Of a stretch of DNA of 53,434 bases, positions 19,635-53,434 are shown piece after piece. This DNA comes from an uncultured Bacteroidales bacterium. GTDB taxonomy: Bacteria; Bacteroidota; Bacteroidia; Bacteroidales; SZUA-534. Where the stretch lies: assembly GCA_964544385.1 (NCBI GenBank), contig CAZJCR010000003.1, positions 1-53,434 of the forward strand, given 5' to 3'. The position numbers and the translations under genes are program-made. The notes beneath the pieces were generated by a model that was not told the DNA's origin, searched no databases, and was given only the letters and a program-made list of their open reading frames with translations. Positions within the stretch are counted from its first letter, which is position 1. Each line of letters starts with the position of its first letter.

Positions 19635-19776
19635 AACCCAAATTGAGCTAATGGCTCAATCGATTTCGATTTTGTAAGTATTTCACTACACTTCGTTGGT
19701 GAAACACAACAAAATCTACATCGGGGTTAACCTTAGTAAAGCGTTTGTTCGCATAGCTCCAACCGCACAACTCAGG
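19635..19776 (+). repeat. Three-hairpin intergenic repeat, copy A (full length)
   Basis: aacccaaattgagctaatggctcaatcgatttcgattttgtaagtatttcactacacttcgttggtgaaacacaacaaaatctacatcggggttaaccttagtaaagcg...caactcagg. Followed by aaattgggt at 19778-19786, complementary to the left end. Lies 31 nt beyond the histidine kinase stop. Confidence 0.85.
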
Positions 19777-22086: not shown

Positions 22087-22971
22087 ATGGAACTACTTAA
22101 AAAATTTGAACTTAATTTTGATATTAATTATGTTAACGGGCAATTAAAAAACATTGAACTGTTGGCAAAAGAAATGTTTACCCCCGAATATCTTAAATTA
22201 GCTTTTAGTTTAATTGATTTAACAACGTTAAATTCAACCGATCAACAATCGAAAGGTATTGCATTTGCAAATAAGGTTAACAACTTTAGCAGTAATTTTA
22301 ACAACATTCAAAATGTTGCCGCTATATGCGTGTATCCTCCATTAGTTAAGGCAACGGCGCAGGCTTTAAAAGTTAGTAATGTTGGTATTGCATCGGTTGC
22401 TGCTTGTTTCCCGTCGTCGCAAAGTTATATCGAGGTTAAAACTCTTGAATGTAAAATGGCTGTTGCCGACGGTGCTACCGATATTGATATTGTTATATCG
22501 CTTGGCCCCTGGTTCGATGGTAATTACCAGCTTGTGTACAACGAGATAGCAGCTATTAAACAGGCTGTTGGTAATGCACACCTAAAAGTTATACTCGAAA
22601 CGGGCGCATTACAAACTGTTGAGAATATTTGGAATGCAAGCATTGTTGCAATGGCTGCCGGTGCCGATTTTATTAAAACATCGACAGGGAAAATGGACCC
22701 CGCGGCTACACCAATGGCTGTTTTTATTATGTGTATGGCAATTAACGAATTTTACAAACAAACTGGTAAAAAAACGGCCATAAAACCAGCTGGTGGTATG
22801 GTTATTAGTCCCGACGCGTTAACATATATTGCAATTGTAAAAAGTATTTTAGGTAACGATTGGTTAAACAACAAAATGTTCAGGTTAGGTGCAAGCCGGC
22901 TTGCCAATAATTTACTAACCGATATTGTTTCACTTGAAACAGGGCAACAAACACAGGTAAACTATTTTTAA
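22087..22971 (+). CDS. deoC: Deoxyribose-phosphate aldolase (long, DERA-like form)
   Basis: MELLKKFELNF...IDLTTLNSTD...ADFIKTSTGK (Schiff-base Lys context). The track ORF starts at TTG 22060. Confidence 0.85.
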   Translation: MELLKKFELNFDINYVNGQLKNIELLAKEMFTPEYLKLAFSLIDLTTLNSTDQQSKGIAFANKVNNFSSNFNNIQNVAAICVYPPLVKATAQALKVSNVGIASVAACFPSSQSYIEVKTLECKMAVADGATDIDIVISLGPWFDGNYQLVYNEIAAIKQAVGNAHLKVILETGALQTVENIWNASIVAMAAGADFIKTSTGKMDPAATPMAVFIMCMAINEFYKQTGKKTAIKPAGGMVISPDALTYIAIVKSILGNDWLNNKMFRLGASRLANNLLTDIVSLETGQQTQVNYF

Positions 22972-23040
22972 ACAAACTCTACATCGGGGTTATACCTAAG
23001 TAAAGTGTTTGTTGGTTTAGCTCAAACCGCTCAACTTAGG
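22971..23040 (+). repeat. Three-hairpin repeat, copy B (3' half only)
   Basis: aacaaactctacatcggggttatacctaagtaaagtgtttgttggtttagctcaaaccgctcaacttagg. Begins at the last base of the deoC stop codon. Confidence 0.8.
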
Positions 23041-23075
23041 TGATAAACTGTTTTGAATACTTGTTTTTATAAACA

Positions 23076-27903: not shown

Positions 27904-28287
27904 ATGTTCAGCAATTACGATTTTACAGGTAAAAAAATACTTATAGCCGAGGACGAAAAAACAAATTATTTGTTTTTAGAAGCATTGCTTAAGCGAACAA
28001 ACGCTTCGTTGGTTTGGGCCGAAACAGGCCGGGCAGCTTTAGATGCGGTTATTAACGACCCTGGCATTAACATTGTTTTGATGGACATAAAAATGCCCGA
28101 GATGAACGGGTACGAGGCTACTCACGAAATCAAAAAAATTAGGCCAACATTACCTATTATTGCTCAAACTGCATATGCTTTAGCCGGCGAAAAAGAGAAA
28201 ATTTTAAGTGCCGGTTGCGACGATTACCTGTCGAAACCTATAATGGGCAAAGTATTACTCGAAAAAATTAACAAGTTTTTCACCTAA
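27904..28287 (+). CDS. Stand-alone response regulator receiver (CheY-like)
   Basis: 127 aa: KILIAEDEKTNYLFLEALL...VLMDIKMPEMNGYEAT...AQTAYALAGEKEKILSAGCDDYLSKP. Confidence 0.85.
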   Translation: MFSNYDFTGKKILIAEDEKTNYLFLEALLKRTNASLVWAETGRAALDAVINDPGINIVLMDIKMPEMNGYEATHEIKKIRPTLPIIAQTAYALAGEKEKILSAGCDDYLSKPIMGKVLLEKINKFFT

Positions 28288-28425
28288 GCTGAGCGGTTGG
28301 AGTAATCCGAACAAGAGCTTTACTTAGGTATAACCCCTATGTGGAGTTTGTTGCGTTTCACTAACTAAGTTTAGTTAAATACCTACAAAATCTAAATCGA
28401 TTGAGCGGTTAGCTCAATTTGGGTT
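28283..28425 (-). repeat. Three-hairpin intergenic repeat, copy C (full length, inverted)
   Basis: Its reverse complement reads aacccaaattgagctaaccgctcaatcgatttagattttgtaggtatttaactaaacttagttagtgaaacgcaacaaactccacataggggttatacctaagtaaagctc...gctcagcttagg. The terminal CCTAAG contains the response-regulator stop codon (28285-28287). Confidence 0.85.
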
Positions 28426-28458
28426 TTTATAAATAATAATATCAACAAAGGTTTACAG

Positions 28459-28486
28459 GCCCGGGTTTATATCCGGGCTTTTTTTT
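28459..28486 (+). terminator. Rho-independent terminator (overlaps the 3' end of the convergent membrane-protein gene)
   Basis: GCCCGGgtttatatCCGGGCtttttttt: 6-bp GC stem, 8-nt loop and 8 T. Confidence 0.75.
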
Positions 28487-29816
28487 GGGCTATTTGTTGC
28501 CGGTGGTTGCTTAATATAACTAAAAGTACTATGGCAAAAAAAGTAAGTACCGGCGACCGGTAACGTACCAAAGCACCAAAATTTGCTGTTGTAAGCCCTA
28601 CAAAAAACGCGAATGTTATTGAAAAAACAAATGCCGATAATAAAAACGGGTCGGTGTAAACCCGTTTAACAAAACCAAAAATACGGCAACATAACAATAC
28701 CCATATTGTTAGTAATAATATTATGCCGCTCTCAATAGCCGACAAAAGCATAAGCGGGTTTCGTACTTCCCAAAAAAACGGCCTGTAAATGCCCGATACC
28801 GATGCAATTGGAAACTTGCTCAAAATGCCTTGTAAGGTTGGTTCAAAACTACCTATATCAAAACTGTTGCCTCCGTAATACTCTTTGCTAAGGTCGCTTT
28901 GTATTATTTGTGCTGTTTCAAGCATCGAGTCGATACTTTGGTAACGTGCGCCAACCTGCGACCCGGTTTTAAATAATATAAAGGTGCCAGTTAAATAAAT
29001 TGTAAGCATAATTACCGGGAAAGCTATTGTTCGCAAAAAATTGCTTTTTATGCGGCTTAAATAATAAAAACCTAACCAAATAAGCGCGCTCCCGGTTGCA
29101 ACATAAAAAGTGTATGGCCTTATTGATATGGCAATGTATGACCAGACAATTAATATTATAATATTTGATAATATTTTTTTGCGTTCGATAAAAATGTTGT
29201 TGGCACAAATAAAAATGTAAAAAGTAGCAATAAGGCACCAGCCGTCTTTTAATATTCCCGAGCTCCAAAAAACAATACTTGGCATAAACAGAACTGCAAT
29301 TGCCAAAAGTTTTTTTTGCTTTGGGTAAAAGCCTGCTACTAACCTGTAAAAGTGCCATATACCTAAATACCAAAAAACATTAACAACAATTGTGTTACCA
29401 ATATAACTACCAAAACTAATAAGGTAAAAAAGGTAATTAAACCTGCTAACAGCAAACGACAAGGGGTCGCGGAAGTAAACAGGGTATCCGGTATTTATGT
29501 CGAACATGCTGGCAACCTCGGGTGTGTGTATACCAGCCATTAGTTTAATAAATGTTGGAAAATGCTTAACCGCCATGCGGTTTATTGATTGCGAGCCCAA
29601 ATAATAATATACGGTATCGCCACCGCCATAATAATATAAGTAAACGTATGTAAAAAACAGGCCGCCAAATATTTTTAAAAATAAACCGGTTGTAAAGTAT
29701 TTATACTCGGGGTTAAGGTCAATGTTTTTGTTTACAGTTTTACGTGCCCAAAAGTAAACTATAATTATGTACAGTGGTGCTATTATTATGTCGGTTGACG
29801 ATAAAATATCTAACAT
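28467..29816 (-). CDS. Hypothetical polytopic membrane protein (about 12 TM, Wzy/GT-C-like appearance, family not recognised)
   Basis: 449-aa ORF, very hydrophobic and rich in aromatic residues. No motif I can name. Confidence 0.5.
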   Translation of the reverse strand: MLDILSSTDIIIAPLYIIIVYFWARKTVNKNIDLNPEYKYFTTGLFLKIFGGLFFTYVYLYYYGGGDTVYYYLGSQSINRMAVKHFPTFIKLMAGIHTPEVASMFDINTGYPVYFRDPLSFAVSRFNYLFYLISFGSYIGNTIVVNVFWYLGIWHFYRLVAGFYPKQKKLLAIAVLFMPSIVFWSSGILKDGWCLIATFYIFICANNIFIERKKILSNIIILIVWSYIAISIRPYTFYVATGSALIWLGFYYLSRIKSNFLRTIAFPVIMLTIYLTGTFILFKTGSQVGARYQSIDSMLETAQIIQSDLSKEYYGGNSFDIGSFEPTLQGILSKFPIASVSGIYRPFFWEVRNPLMLLSAIESGIILLLTIWVLLCCRIFGFVKRVYTDPFLLSAFVFSITFAFFVGLTTANFGALVRYRSPVLTFFAIVLLVILSNHRQQIAQKKARI

Positions 29817-43663: not shown

Positions 43664-43805
43664 AACCCAAATTGAGCGAAACGCTCAATCGATTTAGATT
43701 TTGTAAGTATTTCACTACACTTCGTTAGTGAAACACAACAAACTCTACATCGGGGTTAACCTAAGTAAAGCGTTTATTTGCTGCGCTTTAACCGCTTAAC
43801 TTAGG
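43664..43805 (+). repeat. Three-hairpin intergenic repeat, copy D (full length, closest to consensus)
   Basis: aacccaaattgagcgaaacgctcaatcgatttagattttgtaagtatttcactacacttcgttagtgaaacacaacaaactctacatcggggttaacctaagtaaagcgtttatttgctgcgctttaaccgcttaacttagg. Confidence 0.9.
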
Positions 43806-43885: not shown

Positions 43886-43968
43886 CTAATTGAGCTGCTA
43901 CAAGCTCTAAATAAAGACTATACCTAAGTAAATGTTTTGTTAGTTTTGCATAAGCTGCAAAATGCGGG
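43886..43968 (+). repeat. Degenerate, internally deleted copy D' of the repeat (hairpin 1 + hairpin 3 regions)
   Basis: ctaattgagctgctacaagctc...tatacctaagtaaatgttttgttagttttgcataagctgc. Recognisable only by the attgagc and tacctaagtaaa segments. Confidence 0.35.
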
Positions 43969-44085
43969 TAAAATTTATAAATTTGTTTTTAAAACTAAAT
44001 AAACATGTTTCCTTATAATTTTTTACATTTATGCTAAATATTTAAAAACATTTTTATAAAAACCATAAAATTTTGAACAATTAGT

Positions 44086-45152: not shown

Positions 45153-45175
45153 GCTGATATTTAGATTTTAAAGAA

Positions 45176-45218
45176 AATAAAAAGGGGTGTTATTTTTAAT
45201 AACAGCCCTTTTTATTTT
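45176..45218. terminator. Bidirectional rho-independent terminator between asnA and the S41 peptidase gene
   Basis: aaaaaGGGGTGTTATttttaATAACAGCCCtttttatttt: ~14-bp stem with one mismatch, T-runs on both strands. Confidence 0.7.
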
Positions 45219-45251: not shown

Positions 45252-45393
45252 AACTCGAATTGAGCGATTACCTCACAGGATAAAACCTTTATAAGCCTTT
45301 TACGGCACTACGTTTTTGAAAGACCACAAACTCTACTTCGGGGTTAACCTAAGTAAAGCGGTTGTTTACTTGGTTCCAACAGCTAAATTTAGG
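45252..45393 (+). repeat. Three-hairpin intergenic repeat, copy F (full length, divergent 5' half)
   Basis: aactcgaattgagcgattacctcacagg...accacaaactctacttcggggttaacctaagtaaagcggttgtttacttggttccaacagctaaatttagg. Confidence 0.7.
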
Positions 45394-46579: not shown

Positions 46580-46722
46580 AACCCAAATTGAGCGATTCGC
46601 TCAATCGATTTATATTTTGTATGTATTTCGCTGCACTTGGTTAGTGAAACACAACAAACTCTACATCGGGGTTATACTTATGTAAGGTGTTTGTTTGCTT
46701 AGCTACAACCACTCAACTTAGG
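46580..46722 (+). repeat. Three-hairpin intergenic repeat, copy G (full length)
   Basis: aacccaaattgagcgattcgctcaatcgatttatattttgtatgtatttcgctgcacttggttagtgaaacacaacaaactctacatcggggttatacttatgtaaggtg...cactcaacttagg. Confidence 0.85.
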
Positions 46723-48632: not shown

Positions 48633-48824
48633 AATAAATAATTTATAGATTAAGGAATGATAGCCTGCCCCGATACCATGGGTGAACAACTAGGTAGGAA
48701 ATTTTATTGCATGTGTGTTTGTGTTTTTCTAAGCATAGGTGTTTCATCTGTTTTTTTTAGTTGGTTTAATGCAGCTATGATGTTGTTGTATTAATTTAGG
48801 TTGCAAGTAAAAATAATATTGTAA

Positions 48825-48859
48825 AAAAGGTTTGATGCTTTTTTTGCATCAAACCTTTT
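48825..48859. terminator. Bidirectional rho-independent terminator
   Basis: aaaaGGTTTGATGCtttttttGCATCAAACCtttt: perfect 14-bp stem (including A-T extension), A/T runs on both sides. It lies just beyond repeat copy H relative to the LRR gene. Confidence 0.8.
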
Positions 48860-48862
48860 AAT

Positions 48863-49004
48863 ACCCAAATTTTGCGATTAGCTCAATCGATTTATATTTT
48901 GTAAGTATTACACTATACTTCGCATGTGAAACACAACAAACTCTACATCGGGGTTATACCTAAGTTGAGCGTTTGTTCGTTTAGCTCCAAACGCTCAACT
49001 TAGG
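48863..49004 (+). repeat. Three-hairpin intergenic repeat, copy H (full length; hairpin 3 a perfect 16-bp stem)
   Basis: acccaaattttgcgattagctcaatcgatttatattttgtaagtattacactatacttcgcatgtgaaacacaacaaactctacatcggggttataCCTAAGTTGAGCGTTTgttcgtttagctccAAACGCTCAACTTAGG. Confidence 0.85.
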
Positions 49005-49013
49005 TAATAATGT

Positions 49014-49040
49014 AACCAACATTGAGCAATTAGCTCAATT
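49014..49040 (+). repeat. Solo left-end/hairpin-1 fragment H' of the repeat
   Basis: aaccaacattgagcaattagctcaatt, compared with the consensus left end aacccaaattgagcNNNNgctcaat. It lies 4 nt from the LRR gene stop codon. Confidence 0.55.
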
Positions 49041-49043
49041 GTT

Positions 49044-52000
49044 TTAGTTTTTAATAAACTTAATAATATTATTATCGACTTTTAAAATATAAACTCCATG
49101 TTTTAGGTGTTCGATATTTAAAGGCTCGCCCGGTTGCAATGTACCCGATAATACCTTTACCCCTGTAATGCTGTAAATATTAATAATTTGGTTATTAACA
49201 AAACCGCTAATATTTAATTGGTTAGTAGCCGGGTTGGGGTAAACTGCAACATTTTGTTTGTTGTTGATATTTATGCCTACAAGTTTTTCGAATTTTGCCT
49301 CGACATAAACATTATAATCGGGCATAGTTAATTTACCATTTGTAATTTCAACCTCGGTATTATTATCGCGATTATAAGCACGCATACTGCCTTCGATAAA
49401 TTTGTAACCTGAGTTTGGTATTGCATCGAGTTGAACAACAGTACCAAGTGGCAGTAACCCATAACATGATGCATTTACCTGACCCATATCGTTTTGTAAA
49501 ATCTCGAGCTTGTAAAAATTATCGGTAGTGCTAATATTCCAGCCATACCATAAATTATCGGTGGTATTGCCGTCGTTAACTGCTTTGTATGCAAGGTAAG
49601 CATTATTAAGCTCATCGTCGAAAGCGTTAACTATTATAATATTACGCTGTGGTGCACAATTGTAAAAAATCCCATCGACAACCGGTGGTTTTACATTAAC
49701 AAAAATTTTGTTAAGTTTAACACAATCATCAAAAGCATGTATACAAATATGTGATACATTTTTTAGGTTTAACCACTCAATTGATGAACAGCCGTTAAAT
49801 GCATAGTGGTCAATATACTCGATATTAGGGCAATTTACAGTAGTTAATGACGAGCAGTTTTGGAAACAATATGATTGCAATGATTTAACTTTATTAAATG
49901 TAACCAATTCAATTGATGAACAGCCGTTAAATGCATAGTGGTCAATATACTCGATATTAGGGCAATTTACAGTAGTTAATGACGAACAGTTTTGGAAACA
50001 ACCATAAGGTAAAATAATTACTTTATTAAAAGTAACCGATTTGAGCGAAGAACATTGCGAAAATACATTTTTTGGTAAAGTGATAATATTTGAAATATCG
50101 ACAAACTGAATATTGTTATTAAAAAGTGCTGAATTAAACGGTGGCATTTGATCATTTATTTCCACTGTGTCGACAATCGAAAAATTGATAATGTTAGTTA
50201 GTTTATTACGGATATCGAAAAGATACCACCAGTCGGCTGTATTAAAATTTCCGCCTGTAATTTTTAACGAGCTAATATTAGTTAAATCAACATTAAACAA
50301 AGCACTTTCGAGCGAAAAGCCCCGGATATTTAAAGTATCATTTATCGATACATTAAAAATACGTGTTTTAAATTTTACAAAAAGTACAATATTTTCGGCA
50401 GGCATAACAAACGAGTTGTTTTTAATTGGCACAATTAGTCCGGTTTGAGTTGTATACCAGGCACTATCGAAAAGCGAATATTGAAAAGATGTAACGGTAA
50501 AATTAACAGTTTGGCCACTTAAAGCGTATTTACTTATGTTAACAAAGTCGTTACCAACACTCTCGTCGAGTGTAATTGTATAATAATCATGTCCGAGTTG
50601 CCAACCATACCAATTTTGATTGGTTGTATCGCCATCGTTAACTGCTTTATACTTATTAATAACTTCAATACGTTCTGCAATCTGGAGTTCCTTGCCTAAG
50701 GTGTCAACAGGCACAAGTAACCTGTTTATTGAATTGTTGAAGAAAGCATAATTGCCAACTGTTGGCGGGTTTTGGCCTGCCATAAGGTTCGAGAGCATTT
50801 GGCAATCATCAAAAGCCAATCTGCCAATATTCAAAATTCGTGGTATATTAACAGTTGTTAACTTATTACACGATTCGAAAGCAGATTCGTTAATATTATT
50901 AACATTAGGCATTTTTATATTGGTAAGTAATTTGCACGATGCAAAAGCATATTCACCAATACTTTTTACCGACTGTAAATTAACATGTTCGAGTGAAATA
51001 CAGCCAAAAAATGCATAATTATTAATAGTTGTTGCGCTGTAAAAGTTTATTGAAAAAAGACGGGTACATTGGGCAAAAGCGTACTCGCCAACAGTTTTTA
51101 CACTGTTTAATTCAATATTTTGTAAGTTACTACAACCATATAATGCATGGTTATTAATAAAACTTACATTACCGGCGCTAAACTTTGTAAGCGAACGGCA
51201 TAAATAAAATGCAGATGAACCAATTGTTGTAGCCCCGCTAAAACTGGCTTCGGTTAAGGCTGTACAATTATTAAAAGCATTATTGCCAATATAAGTTGCT
51301 TTTGCTACACTAATATATTGCAATTTGTTGTTAAACAGCGGATTGTCATCGTAAGTGTCAGGCAAATTGGCCACAAGTGACAAGTTATATGAGATAATAA
51401 AATTAGTAAGATTGGTTAGCTTATTTTTATTAGCACGAAGCCATAGCCAGTCAGTATTCATAAAAATTCCGCCGGTTACTTCAAGTTTGTTTATTGTAGC
51501 CGGGTTAGTATTGGCAAGAGCACTGGCTAATGTTAACCCGTTTAACTGCAAGGTGTCGTTAACAGTAACAAAAACTTCGTTTTTTGGAAAATAAGCATTA
51601 AGGGTAATATTACAACCTGGCATTGTAAAGGAGTTCCCTGATATAATTTCTGTATCGCCATTTGGTGTTGTGTACCAGGCATAGGCAAATGCATAACCAC
51701 TTGCCGGTAATGCTGTATAAGTAACATCAACATCGGCAACACAATATTTTTCAACATCAATTGTACCATTAGTTATTGTGTTGTCTAATGTAATAGAGTA
51801 AATATTATTACTTATAGTCCACCCATACCATAACGAGTCGTTGGTATTGCCATCGTCGTGGTTTATGTAGTTGTTAACAGCATTTTCCAAATCTTGCCCG
51901 GCAAGTAAAATACCATTTTGGTTAACAGGTATAATATAACGCGTAGCAGGGCAGTCGTAAAAAACATAAATTCCAACAGTTGGCGGGTTTTGGCCAACCA

Positions 52001-53434
52001 TAAAGGTTGATAGTTTATTGCAATAATTAAAAGCTCTATTTCCAATACCAGTAACCAAAGGAAAGTTTATTGTTTTTAACGATGTACAATTATAGAAGAC
52101 ATAATTACCAATAGCTTTTACCTTTGCTACACTAATATATTGCAGTTTGCTATTAAACAGTGGGTTGTTATTATCAGTATTGGGCAAATCGGCTACAAAA
52201 GTAAGATTGTTGGTGATAATAAAACCAGTAAGATTTGTTAGTATATTATTATTATCACGAAGCCACAACCAATCGGTACTTGTAAAAATTCCACCGGTTA
52301 CTTCAAGTTTGTTTATTGTAGCCGGGTTAGTATTGGCAAGAGCACTGGCTAATGTTAACCCGTTTAACTGCAAGGTGTCGTTAACAGTAACAAAAACTTC
52401 GTTTTTTGGAAAATAAGCATTAAGGGTAATATTACAACCTGGCATTGTAAAGGTATCGCCGGTAATAAATGTAGTGTCACCATCTGGTGTTGTGTACCAG
52501 GCATAGGCTAATGTATAACCATTTTCGGGTAATGGATTAAAAGTAATATCAATACCGGCAACGCAATATTTGGCAATATTTATTGTTCCATTAGTTATTG
52601 TGTTGTCTAAAGTAATAGAGTATATATTATTACTTACAGCCCACCCATACCATAACGAGTCGTTGGTATTGCCATCGTTGTAGTTTAAATAGTTGTTAAT
52701 AGTATTAGTGTAATCTTGCCCTGTTTGCAAAATACCATTTTGGTTAACAGGTATAATATAACGCGTAGCAGGGCAGTTGTAAAAAGCGTTACTCCCAACA
52801 GTTGGCGGGTTTTTGCCAACCATAAAGGTTGATAGTTTATTGCAATTACAAAAAGCCTCCACACCAATATTAGTAACTAAAGGGAAGTTTGCTGTTGTTA
52901 ATGATTCACAATCATAAAAAGCATACTGACCAATATTAGTAACCAAAGGGAAGTTTGCTGTTGTTAACCCTGTACAAAAGTAAAAAGCCTGATCACCAAT
53001 ACCAGTAACCAAAGGGAAGTTTGCTGTTGTTAACCCTGAACAATAACAAAAGGCTAATTTACCAATACTTGAAACTAATGGGAAGTTGGCGGTGATTAAC
53101 CCTGAACAATTATAAAAAGCATAATCAGCAATATTAGTAACTAAAGGGAAGTTTACTATTGTTAACCCTGTACAACTACGAAAAGCATAATCACCAATAG
53201 CTTTTACCTTTGCTACACTAATATATTGCAGTTTGTTATTAAACAGTGGGTTGTTATTATCAGTATTGGGCAAATCGGCTACAAAAGTAAGATTGTTGGT
53301 GATAATAAAACCAGTAAGATTTGTTAGTATATTATTATTATCACGAAGCCACAACCAATCGGTACTTGTAAAAATTCCACCGGTTACTTCAAGTTTGTTT
53401 ATTGTAGCCGGGTTAGTATTGGCAAGAGCACTGG
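49044..53434 (-). CDS. Giant modular BspA-type leucine-rich-repeat surface protein with Listeria/Bacteroides-repeat (Ig-like) domains and T9SS CTD; 5' end outside the window
   Basis: The track ORF is 1436 aa, but its first codon is a TTG Leu. The frame stays open to 53434 (…ASALANTNPATINKLEVTGGIFTSTDWLWLRD…). LRR units of about 22-23 aa (IGDYAFYNCSGLTTANFPLVT). Domains of the type YSITLDNTITNGTI...GYTLAYAWYTTPDGDT...FTMPGCNITLNAYF. C-terminal VYPNPATNQLNI...GVYILKVDNNIIKFIKN. Confidence 0.85.
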   Translation of the reverse strand, partial: SALANTNPATINKLEVTGGIFTSTDWLWLRDNNNILTNLTGFIITNNLTFVADLPNTDNNNPLFNNKLQYISVAKVKAIGDYAFRSCTGLTIVNFPLVTNIADYAFYNCSGLITANFPLVSSIGKLAFCYCSGLTTANFPLVTGIGDQAFYFCTGLTTANFPLVTNIGQYAFYDCESLTTANFPLVTNIGVEAFCNCNKLSTFMVGKNPPTVGSNAFYNCPATRYIIPVNQNGILQTGQDYTNTINNYLNYNDGNTNDSLWYGWAVSNNIYSITLDNTITNGTINIAKYCVAGIDITFNPLPENGYTLAYAWYTTPDGDTTFITGDTFTMPGCNITLNAYFPKNEVFVTVNDTLQLNGLTLASALANTNPATINKLEVTGGIFTSTDWLWLRDNNNILTNLTGFIITNNLTFVADLPNTDNNNPLFNSKLQYISVAKVKAIGNYVFYNCTSLKTINFPLVTGIGNRAFNYCNKLSTFMVGQNPPTVGIYVFYDCPATRYIIPVNQNGILLAGQDLENAVNNYINHDDGNTNDSLWYGWTISNNIYSITLDNTITNGTIDVEKYCVADVDVTYTALPASGYAFAYAWYTTPNGDTEIISGNSFTMPGCNITLNAYFPKNEVFVTVNDTLQLNGLTLASALANTNPATINKLEVTGGIFMNTDWLWLRANKNKLTNLTNFIISYNLSLVANLPDTYDDNPLFNNKLQYISVAKATYIGNNAFNNCTALTEASFSGATTIGSSAFYLCRSLTKFSAGNVSFINNHALYGCSNLQNIELNSVKTVGEYAFAQCTRLFSINFYSATTINNYAFFGCISLEHVNLQSVKSIGEYAFASCKLLTNIKMPNVNNINESAFESCNKLTTVNIPRILNIGRLAFDDCQMLSNLMAGQNPPTVGNYAFFNNSINRLLVPVDTLGKELQIAERIEVINKYKAVNDGDTTNQNWYGWQLGHDYYTITLDESVGNDFVNISKYALSGQTVNFTVTSFQYSLFDSAWYTTQTGLIVPIKNNSFVMPAENIVLFVKFKTRIFNVSINDTLNIRGFSLESALFNVDLTNISSLKITGGNFNTADWWYLFDIRNKLTNIINFSIVDTVEINDQMPPFNSALFNNNIQFVDISNIITLPKNVFSQCSSLKSVTFNKVIILPYGCFQNCSSLTTVNCPNIEYIDHYAFNGCSSIELVTFNKVKSLQSYCFQNCSSLTTVNCPNIEYIDHYAFNGCSSIEWLNLKNVSHICIHAFDDCVKLNKIFVNVKPPVVDGIFYNCAPQRNIIIVNAFDDELNNAYLAYKAVNDGNTTDNLWYGWNISTTDNFYKLEILQNDMGQVNASCYGLLPLGTVVQLDAIPNSGYKFIEGSMRAYNRDNNTEVEITNGKLTMPDYNVYVEAKFEKLVGININNKQNVAVYPNPATNQLNISGFVNNQIINIYSITGVKVLSGTLQPGEPLNIEHLKHGVYILKVDNNIIKFIKN
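49777..50005 (-). repeat. 132-nt (44-codon) tandem duplication inside the LRR gene
   Basis: 49777-49873 and 49909-50005 are identical except for one base. They encode CFQNCSSLTTVNCPNIEYIDHYAFNGCSSIE twice. Confidence 0.9.
51472..51631 (-). repeat. Module repeat M3 of the LRR gene (160 nt identical to 52294-52453)
   Basis: Offset of exactly 822 nt (274 codons). Flanks continue at roughly 80-90 percent identity by eye. Confidence 0.9.
52107..52453 (-). repeat. Module repeat M2 of the LRR gene
   Basis: 52107-52348 matches 53193-53434 (offset 1086 nt, 362 codons) with one mismatch seen. 52294-52453 matches M3. Confidence 0.9.
53193..53434 (-). repeat. Module repeat M1 of the LRR gene (truncated by the window edge)
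   Basis: Near-identical to 52107-52348. Confidence 0.9.

Follow-up and report, generated by a model that had tools for sequence, protein, structure and literature searches.

The window, a stretch of 53,434 nucleotides from an uncultured Bacteroidales bacterium, contains a dispersed repeat in six full and two partial copies, as established by repeat search and alignment. One of the full copies, copy C, overlaps the 3' end of a response-regulator gene, where the following features are found.

27904-28287, plus strand: response-regulator gene (Pfam Response_reg, residues 12-122 of 127)
28278-28282, plus strand: 5' copy of the target-site duplication of copy C, TTTCA
28283-28423, plus strand: core of MITE copy C, 141 bp, left terminus CCTAAGCTGAGCG, right terminus GCTCAATTTGGG
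28399-28419, plus strand: 3' terminal hairpin of copy C, GATTGAGCG-GTT-AGCTCAATT
28424-28428, plus strand: 3' copy of the target-site duplication of copy C, TTTTT, decayed (3/5 match)
28457-28488, plus strand: canonical intrinsic terminator 3' of copy C, 10-bp stem with 6 G-C pairs, T8

On the minus strand, a 449-aa open reading frame without a Pfam match (28467-29816) has a stop that overlaps the hairpin at 28457-28488, the terminator of the opposite strand. The other copies of the repeat, and a solo terminal hairpin, lie at the following positions.

19637-19776, minus strand: MITE copy A, 140 bp, perfect duplication TTTTA, in a convergent gene pair
22971-23046, minus strand: truncated copy, 5' part only
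43666-43805, minus strand: MITE copy E (copy D of the initial annotation), between the divergent genes polA and asnA, duplication TTACT/TTACA
43899-43974, minus strand: diverged fragment of the 5' part
45254-45393, minus strand: MITE copy F, between the convergent asnA and S41 peptidase genes
46582-46722, minus strand: MITE copy G, in tandem context, sense
48864-49004, minus strand: MITE copy H, in tandem context, sense, perfect duplication TATTA
49021-49039, plus strand: solo terminal hairpin ATTGAGCAATTAGCTCAAT adjoining copy H

The initial annotation had described the repeat as a possible 3'UTR module, situated between stop codon and terminator with a fixed polarity relative to the upstream gene. 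Its six full copies were borne out by the repeat search, the alignment and profile hits, and Pfam confirms the neighbours that it named (histidine kinase, response regulator, S41 peptidase, BspA-type LRR protein, and polA); the "barrel" gene upstream of copy G has no Pfam match. A co-directional gene indeed enters the CCTAAG (= ACTTAGG) end in copies A, C, F, G, and H, in copy A with 31 nt between the histidine-kinase stop and the 5' end of the element. The count of five in six copies with one polarity is thus right, but about four in six are expected under random orientation, and the figure does not go beyond chance. Since copies A, C, and F each sit in a convergent gene pair, in which a co-directional gene would lie upstream whichever way the element pointed, only copies G and H are informative. 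The three terminators cited beyond copies C, F, and H were recovered by a terminator finder, at 28459-28486 on the plus strand, at 45174-45214 on the minus strand beyond the 3' end of copy F, and at 48823-48855 on the minus strand, a few nt past the duplication of copy H. To judge from this position upstream of canonical terminators, these three copies are very likely transcribed as 3'UTR. The placement "between stop and terminator" nevertheless does not strictly hold for copy C, which contains the stop itself.

The TAA stop of the response regulator (28285-28287) lies inside copy C, which starts at 28283, and the last two codons of the gene, ACC and the stop TAA, extend into the element. When copy C and one copy of the duplication are removed in silico, the gene ends in ...AAC AAG TTT TTC AAT AAA TAA. 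This restored element-free sequence indicates that copy C was inserted two codons ahead of the native stop and that the element now provides the stop; the C-terminus of the response regulator, now ...NKFFT*, would have been ...NKFFNK* before the insertion. The terminator at 28457-28488 is a property of the host gene and not of the MITE. An Rfam search of the window returned no matches at the gathering score and no family at the E-value threshold either, and its sub-threshold hits arise only from this terminator (28457-28486).

Direct repeats of another sort, with a 66-nt period and spacings of 822-1218 nt, lie within a gene for a 1436-aa BspA-type LRR protein with a T9SS tail (49539-53406 of the window). 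These long repeats are coding and have no relation to the MITE.

The dispersed element has a length of 140-141 bp and terminal inverted repeats of 13-16 bp, CCTAAGTTGAGCG and CGCTCAATTTGGG, the former identical to the reverse complement of the latter at 11 of 13 positions. Over 319 flanked copies, conservation ends at T-NNN-A-CCTAAGTTGAGCG on the left and at CGCTCAATTTGGG-T-NNN-A on the right, and the consensus of the target-site duplication is TNNNA. Of 292 copies, 134 have a perfect 5-bp duplication, compared with a mean of 17.2 and a maximum of 30 in shuffled pairings, while the other duplication lengths from 3 to 8 nt gave no excess over shuffles. A profile built from the six window copies obtained 684 nhmmer hits in the draft genome to which the window belongs as contig C3 (G000; 4.01 Mb, 408 contigs, 36% G+C), 333 of full length and ~350 partial, which occupy 1.8% of the genome. 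The consensus has stop codons in every sense frame at most 24 nt from the 5' end. The termini and the 5-bp target-site duplication identify the repeat as a MITE: its ends are inverted repeats, it is small and non-coding, and its copy number is high. Family hits lie within 200 nt of 140 of the 816 contig ends, and the MITE accounts for much of the break-up of the draft assembly into contigs.

In the 3' terminal hairpin of copy C, the right terminal repeat pairs with an inverted copy of its own sequence in a subterminal position. This is the structure that had been taken for a weak terminator: the hairpin AUUGAGC-loop-GCUCAAU followed by UUGGGUUUU consists of these two paired parts and then the duplicated T-rich target. 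The left end of the MITE is built like the right end, and together they give a three-hairpin fold with a predicted energy of -59 kcal/mol for the sense strand and -50 kcal/mol for the antisense strand.

Two element termini also occur back to back, in 22 copies of a 29-bp perfect-type palindrome, CCCAAATTGAGCG-AWT-CGCTCAATTTGGG (for example C396:1465-1493 and C75:4721-4749 of genome G000, and 49021-49039 of the window). The outer 5-mers of these palindromes are often reverse-complementary and not direct, and the palindromes could be minimal mobile units or products of excision or rearrangement. A variant of 173-174 bp has a second copy of the 3' terminal hairpin module, and ~30 copies are followed by TCTAAATCGA. 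Because 11 copies of this variant have perfect 5-bp duplications when measured to the outer terminus, this longer form apparently moves as a single element.

The MITE family is also present in several other Salinivirgaceae genera, in Marinilabilia (at least one copy in M. salmonicolor MSL42) and in many Bacteroidales draft genomes. In one of these (G003), sampled at 20 regions, 18 of 21 copies have perfect duplications. According to the ISfinder tables, elements of the IS1380 family have ends that start with CC and a duplication of 4-5 bp. As the MITE has both traits, CC ends and a duplication of 5 bp, this family was suspected as its source, and a parent was searched for with PF13701 and then with the transposases thereby found. 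This yielded three intact IS1380-family elements of 1.73-1.74 kb in Bacteroidales that carry the termini of the MITE.

L117:136-1876: intact IS of 1741 bp, both termini CCTAAATTGAGCG, perfect duplication TTGAA
L116:1375-3105: intact IS of 1731 bp, termini matching the MITE
L112:1270-3006: intact IS of 1737 bp, termini matching the MITE

The transposase of L112 scores 237.5 bits against NF033539, the IS1380-family model with a cut-off of 180, and the aligned termini of MITE and IS have A-CCYAARTTGAGCGATT in common. A decayed IS copy in G003 (L086) has kept its left terminus. An IS1380-type element of another genome (G008, locus L084) was rejected as a partner, as it lacks the MITE termini. The 4.01-Mb, 408-contig assembly of the window's own genome contains no IS1380 transposase, whose source may be unassembled, unbinned or lost; the MITE is absent from the genomes G095 and G183, which bear intact IS copies; and long elements bounded by MITE termini with matching duplications in G000 comprise only ordinary genes between two separate MITEs, and no transposase. 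Being without a transposase gene, the MITE is non-autonomous.

Like the IS1380-family elements ISEcp1, ISPme1, and IS942, the MITE has termini starting with CC and a 5-bp AT-rich target duplication, and its termini match those of the intact IS with an NF033539 transposase exactly or almost exactly. Unlike them it measures 141 bp and reaches ~700 copies per genome, compared to a handful for the full IS, and past ~16-25 nt its interior is unrelated to theirs. For the Correia elements, both RNase III processing and promoter activity have been shown. These elements (Correia/NEMIS of Neisseria) and bacterial MITEs in general resemble the present family in their length of 100-160 bp, their inverted-repeat ends, their target duplication and their hundreds of intergenic copies (~2% of the genome), often at gene 3' ends and likely co-transcribed (PMC3184786). 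Correia/NEMIS have, however, no sequence relation to it, stem from another parent IS family and target TA, as opposed to TNNNA with a 5-bp duplication here. In the Bacteroidota, the MITEs of Porphyromonas gingivalis (BrickBuilt, MITEPgRS) are strictly intergenic and often found beside Rho-independent terminators (PMC4596501), but BrickBuilt is longer, contains a minisatellite, has ~19 copies and inconsistent duplications, and shares no sequence with the present MITE. Taken together, the repeat is very probably a new and very abundant family of MITEs derived from IS1380, and as such an unexceptional member of an established class of elements.

The family thus described has defined termini, a TNNNA target, a 5-bp duplication and an IS1380-type parent, and it makes up ~1.8% of the genome. 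Many genes here end in stop codons supplied by the element, which is relevant to annotation. IS1380 elements are noted for mobilising and switching on resistance genes, and a MITE that bears their termini in so many copies offers a handy natural substrate for studying end recognition by this poorly understood transposase.

The main competing explanation is that the MITE was exapted as a 3'UTR module or weak terminator, that is, as a transcribed three-hairpin element of which the last hairpin, with UUGGGU and the U-rich duplication, ends or stabilises the upstream mRNA, and of which the polarity is under selection. Correia, ERIC and related repeats provide well-documented cases of MITEs that are co-transcribed at the 3' ends of genes (PMC3184786), and some of these MITEs alter mRNA stability (Delihas 2011, PMC3184786). 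The nearest precedent is ERIC of Enterobacteriaceae and Yersinia, a hairpin-forming MITE of ~127 bp that is co-transcribed 3' of genes and that, as summarised in a secondary source, can induce both cleavage by RNase E and decay of the mRNA upstream of it (De Gregorio 2005, via PMC3184786). The effect of ERIC on mRNA was shown by experiment, whereas the present MITE shows a 63:37 orientation skew.

This skew was obtained with genes called by a codon-usage-scored ORF picker, a crude heuristic whose 3045 genes make up 87% of the genome. Each full copy was classed by its two neighbouring genes, and 276 copies were classifiable.

Tandem sense (a gene reads in and a gene start follows): 98 copies
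Tandem antisense: 57 copies
Convergent: 69 copies
Divergent: 52 copies
Contig edge: 57 copies
Inside a called gene: 0 copies

The tandem ratio of 98:57 (binomial p = 0.0012) becomes 69:34 (p = 0.0007) under a strict filter with neighbours of at least 150 aa and gaps of at most 700 nt, and over all contexts a gene reads into the 5' end in 60.5% of the copies, compared to 53% under random orientation. This sense excess would suit a 3'UTR module, but 37% of the informative copies are antisense and 52 copies lie between divergent genes. The fixed polarity that was to define such a module is contradicted by the tally, in which the informative split is neither fixed nor 50:50. The sense bias is real but modest, the polarity is not fixed, and a dedicated 3'UTR module of fixed polarity is not supported. 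At the DNA level this settles the polarity question: a bias this weak does not argue strongly for a new class of regulatory RNA.

Tandem copies with a perfect duplication are split 40:35 and those with an imperfect one 52:18 (Fisher p = 0.010). That the bias is found only among copies with decayed duplications is in line with selection on older copies, as the 3'UTR reading has it, and suggests filtering after insertion, not insertion preference. With HMM score as a second age proxy, sense and antisense copies do not differ (p = 0.29); reading the bias as selection relies on one age proxy, duplication decay. In the small sample from G003 the sense bias is not repeated (5 sense, 8 antisense), which speaks against the 3'UTR reading. 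A quicker supply of stop codons at gene ends was rejected as the source of the bias, which remains among copies at least 10 nt away from the stop. Orientation has no association with GC skew (p = 0.29), a measure that is weakly informative in a fragmented assembly, and a replication-strand origin of the orientation was rejected on this result.

With respect to position, convergent regions hold 69 copies compared to 33.8 expected and divergent regions 52 compared to 76.3 (chi-square p = 2e-10). Measured from the stop of the gene that reads in, the median distance to the element is 8-33 nt where the gene faces the 5' end and 24-44 nt where it faces the 3' end, and 56 of the 167 genes that read into the 5' end terminate within the first 30 nt of the element. 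In convergent regions the two medians are 8 nt and 44 nt, an asymmetry that a 3'UTR module would explain. By heuristic calls in a window of at most 80 nt beyond the element, a canonical terminator lies beyond the 3' end of 18 of 167 sense-read copies and, in the antisense mirror, of 16 of 126, so that they are equally frequent in both orientations. Among copies whose gap to the gene measures 25 nt or more, 28 of 89 in sense and 23 of 69 in antisense are separated from the stop by a terminator; about a third of these copies therefore come after, not before, the terminator of the gene.

The terminator scan rated the 3' hairpin with TGGGTTTT as terminator-like in copies A and C, but of the 333 full copies only 11 have a last hairpin and T-run that pass the terminator rule (dG no higher than -8, T-run at most 2 nt away). 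A TGGG spacer parts the hairpin stem of the element from the T-run. A terminator-like dispersed repeat sited after genes (PMC3184786) resembles the MITE in structure and position; in the MITE, however, the T-run is largely duplicated target, and few copies pass the rule. The predicted fold of the sense RNA at -59 kcal/mol speaks for the 3'UTR reading, and against it the hairpin would be fully accounted for as a transposase-binding terminus. With 18 of 167 terminators beyond the element, 28 of 89 before it and 11 of 333 own hairpins that pass, "between stop and terminator" fits some copies and not the family. An exapted 3'UTR module is hence an unlikely explanation. It is similarly doubtful that older copies were retained in sense orientation 3' of genes for a useful three-hairpin RNA, as a domestication of the IS1380-derived MITE throughout the Salinivirgaceae; if this were true, the domesticated RNA might protect the 3' end, attenuate read-through or give rise to 3'UTR-derived small RNAs.

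For the IS1380-derived MITE, the following course of events is proposed. A DDE transposase of the IS1380 type, presumably acting in trans, would recognise the 13-16-bp termini A-CCYAARTTGAGCGATT and insert the 141-bp element at AT-rich TNNNA sites with a 5-bp duplication, irrespective of gene direction. Purifying selection would then spare the least harmful sites, with none in genes and few in divergent promoter regions, and the surviving copies would favour convergent gene pairs and sites just past or on stop codons. Copies between a stop and a host terminator (C, F, and H) would be passively co-transcribed into the 3'UTR. The mild sense excess is most likely due to an orientation-dependent tolerance after insertion, with selection as the probable cause; such tolerance could arise if the element terminated transcription weakly, altered RNA stability or carried an outward promoter.

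As an explanation of the polarity bias by itself, an outward promoter at the 3' end of the MITE, tolerated toward a gene start and harmful when antisense into a gene, is rather improbable. The consensus of the -7 box in Bacteroidota is TAnnTTTG. The 3' terminus of the MITE contains TCAATTTG, one mismatch away from this consensus, but the consensus of the element is without a TTTG -33 box at the usual spacing of 19-21 nt, and the sigma-70 promoter scan is uninformative for Bacteroidota. Likewise, the median distance to the downstream start is 170 nt for antisense and 118 nt for sense copies, as expected of such a promoter, while divergent regions are symmetric (141 and 142 nt). Precedents are found in the IS1380 family, of which members such as ISEcp1 and ISPme1 bear strong outward promoters (PMC9330008).

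Single-strand mobilisation of a hairpin repeat by a Y1 (RAYT or IS200-type) transposase, with a strand bias from the direction of replication, is hardly credible and was rejected on the target duplication and on the unrelated repeat around the sole Y1_Tnp gene. Y1 transposases make no target duplication, whereas the copies of the MITE have 5-bp duplications in excess and termini that match DDE-type IS1380 elements. Subterminal hairpins are present at both ends, and eight of nine window copies lie on one strand, but the latter is due to most window genes being on the minus strand; genome-wide, the strands are represented 175:158, and orientation is independent of GC skew (p = 0.29). The genome does encode one Y1_Tnp protein (C176:3665-4120), but the repeat on either side of its gene is another one, GC-rich and REP-like, that lacks the TTGAGCG motif.

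This 151-aa Y1_Tnp (RAYT/IS200-like) gene, in the region C176:3400-4400 of G000 (locus L119), has repeated GC-rich hairpin units on both sides, for example CAGCCTGAAAGGCTAACTGAATTCA.CCCGCGGGCAACGCCCCGGG; these units make up a further family of repeats, REP-like and with no relation to the MITE.
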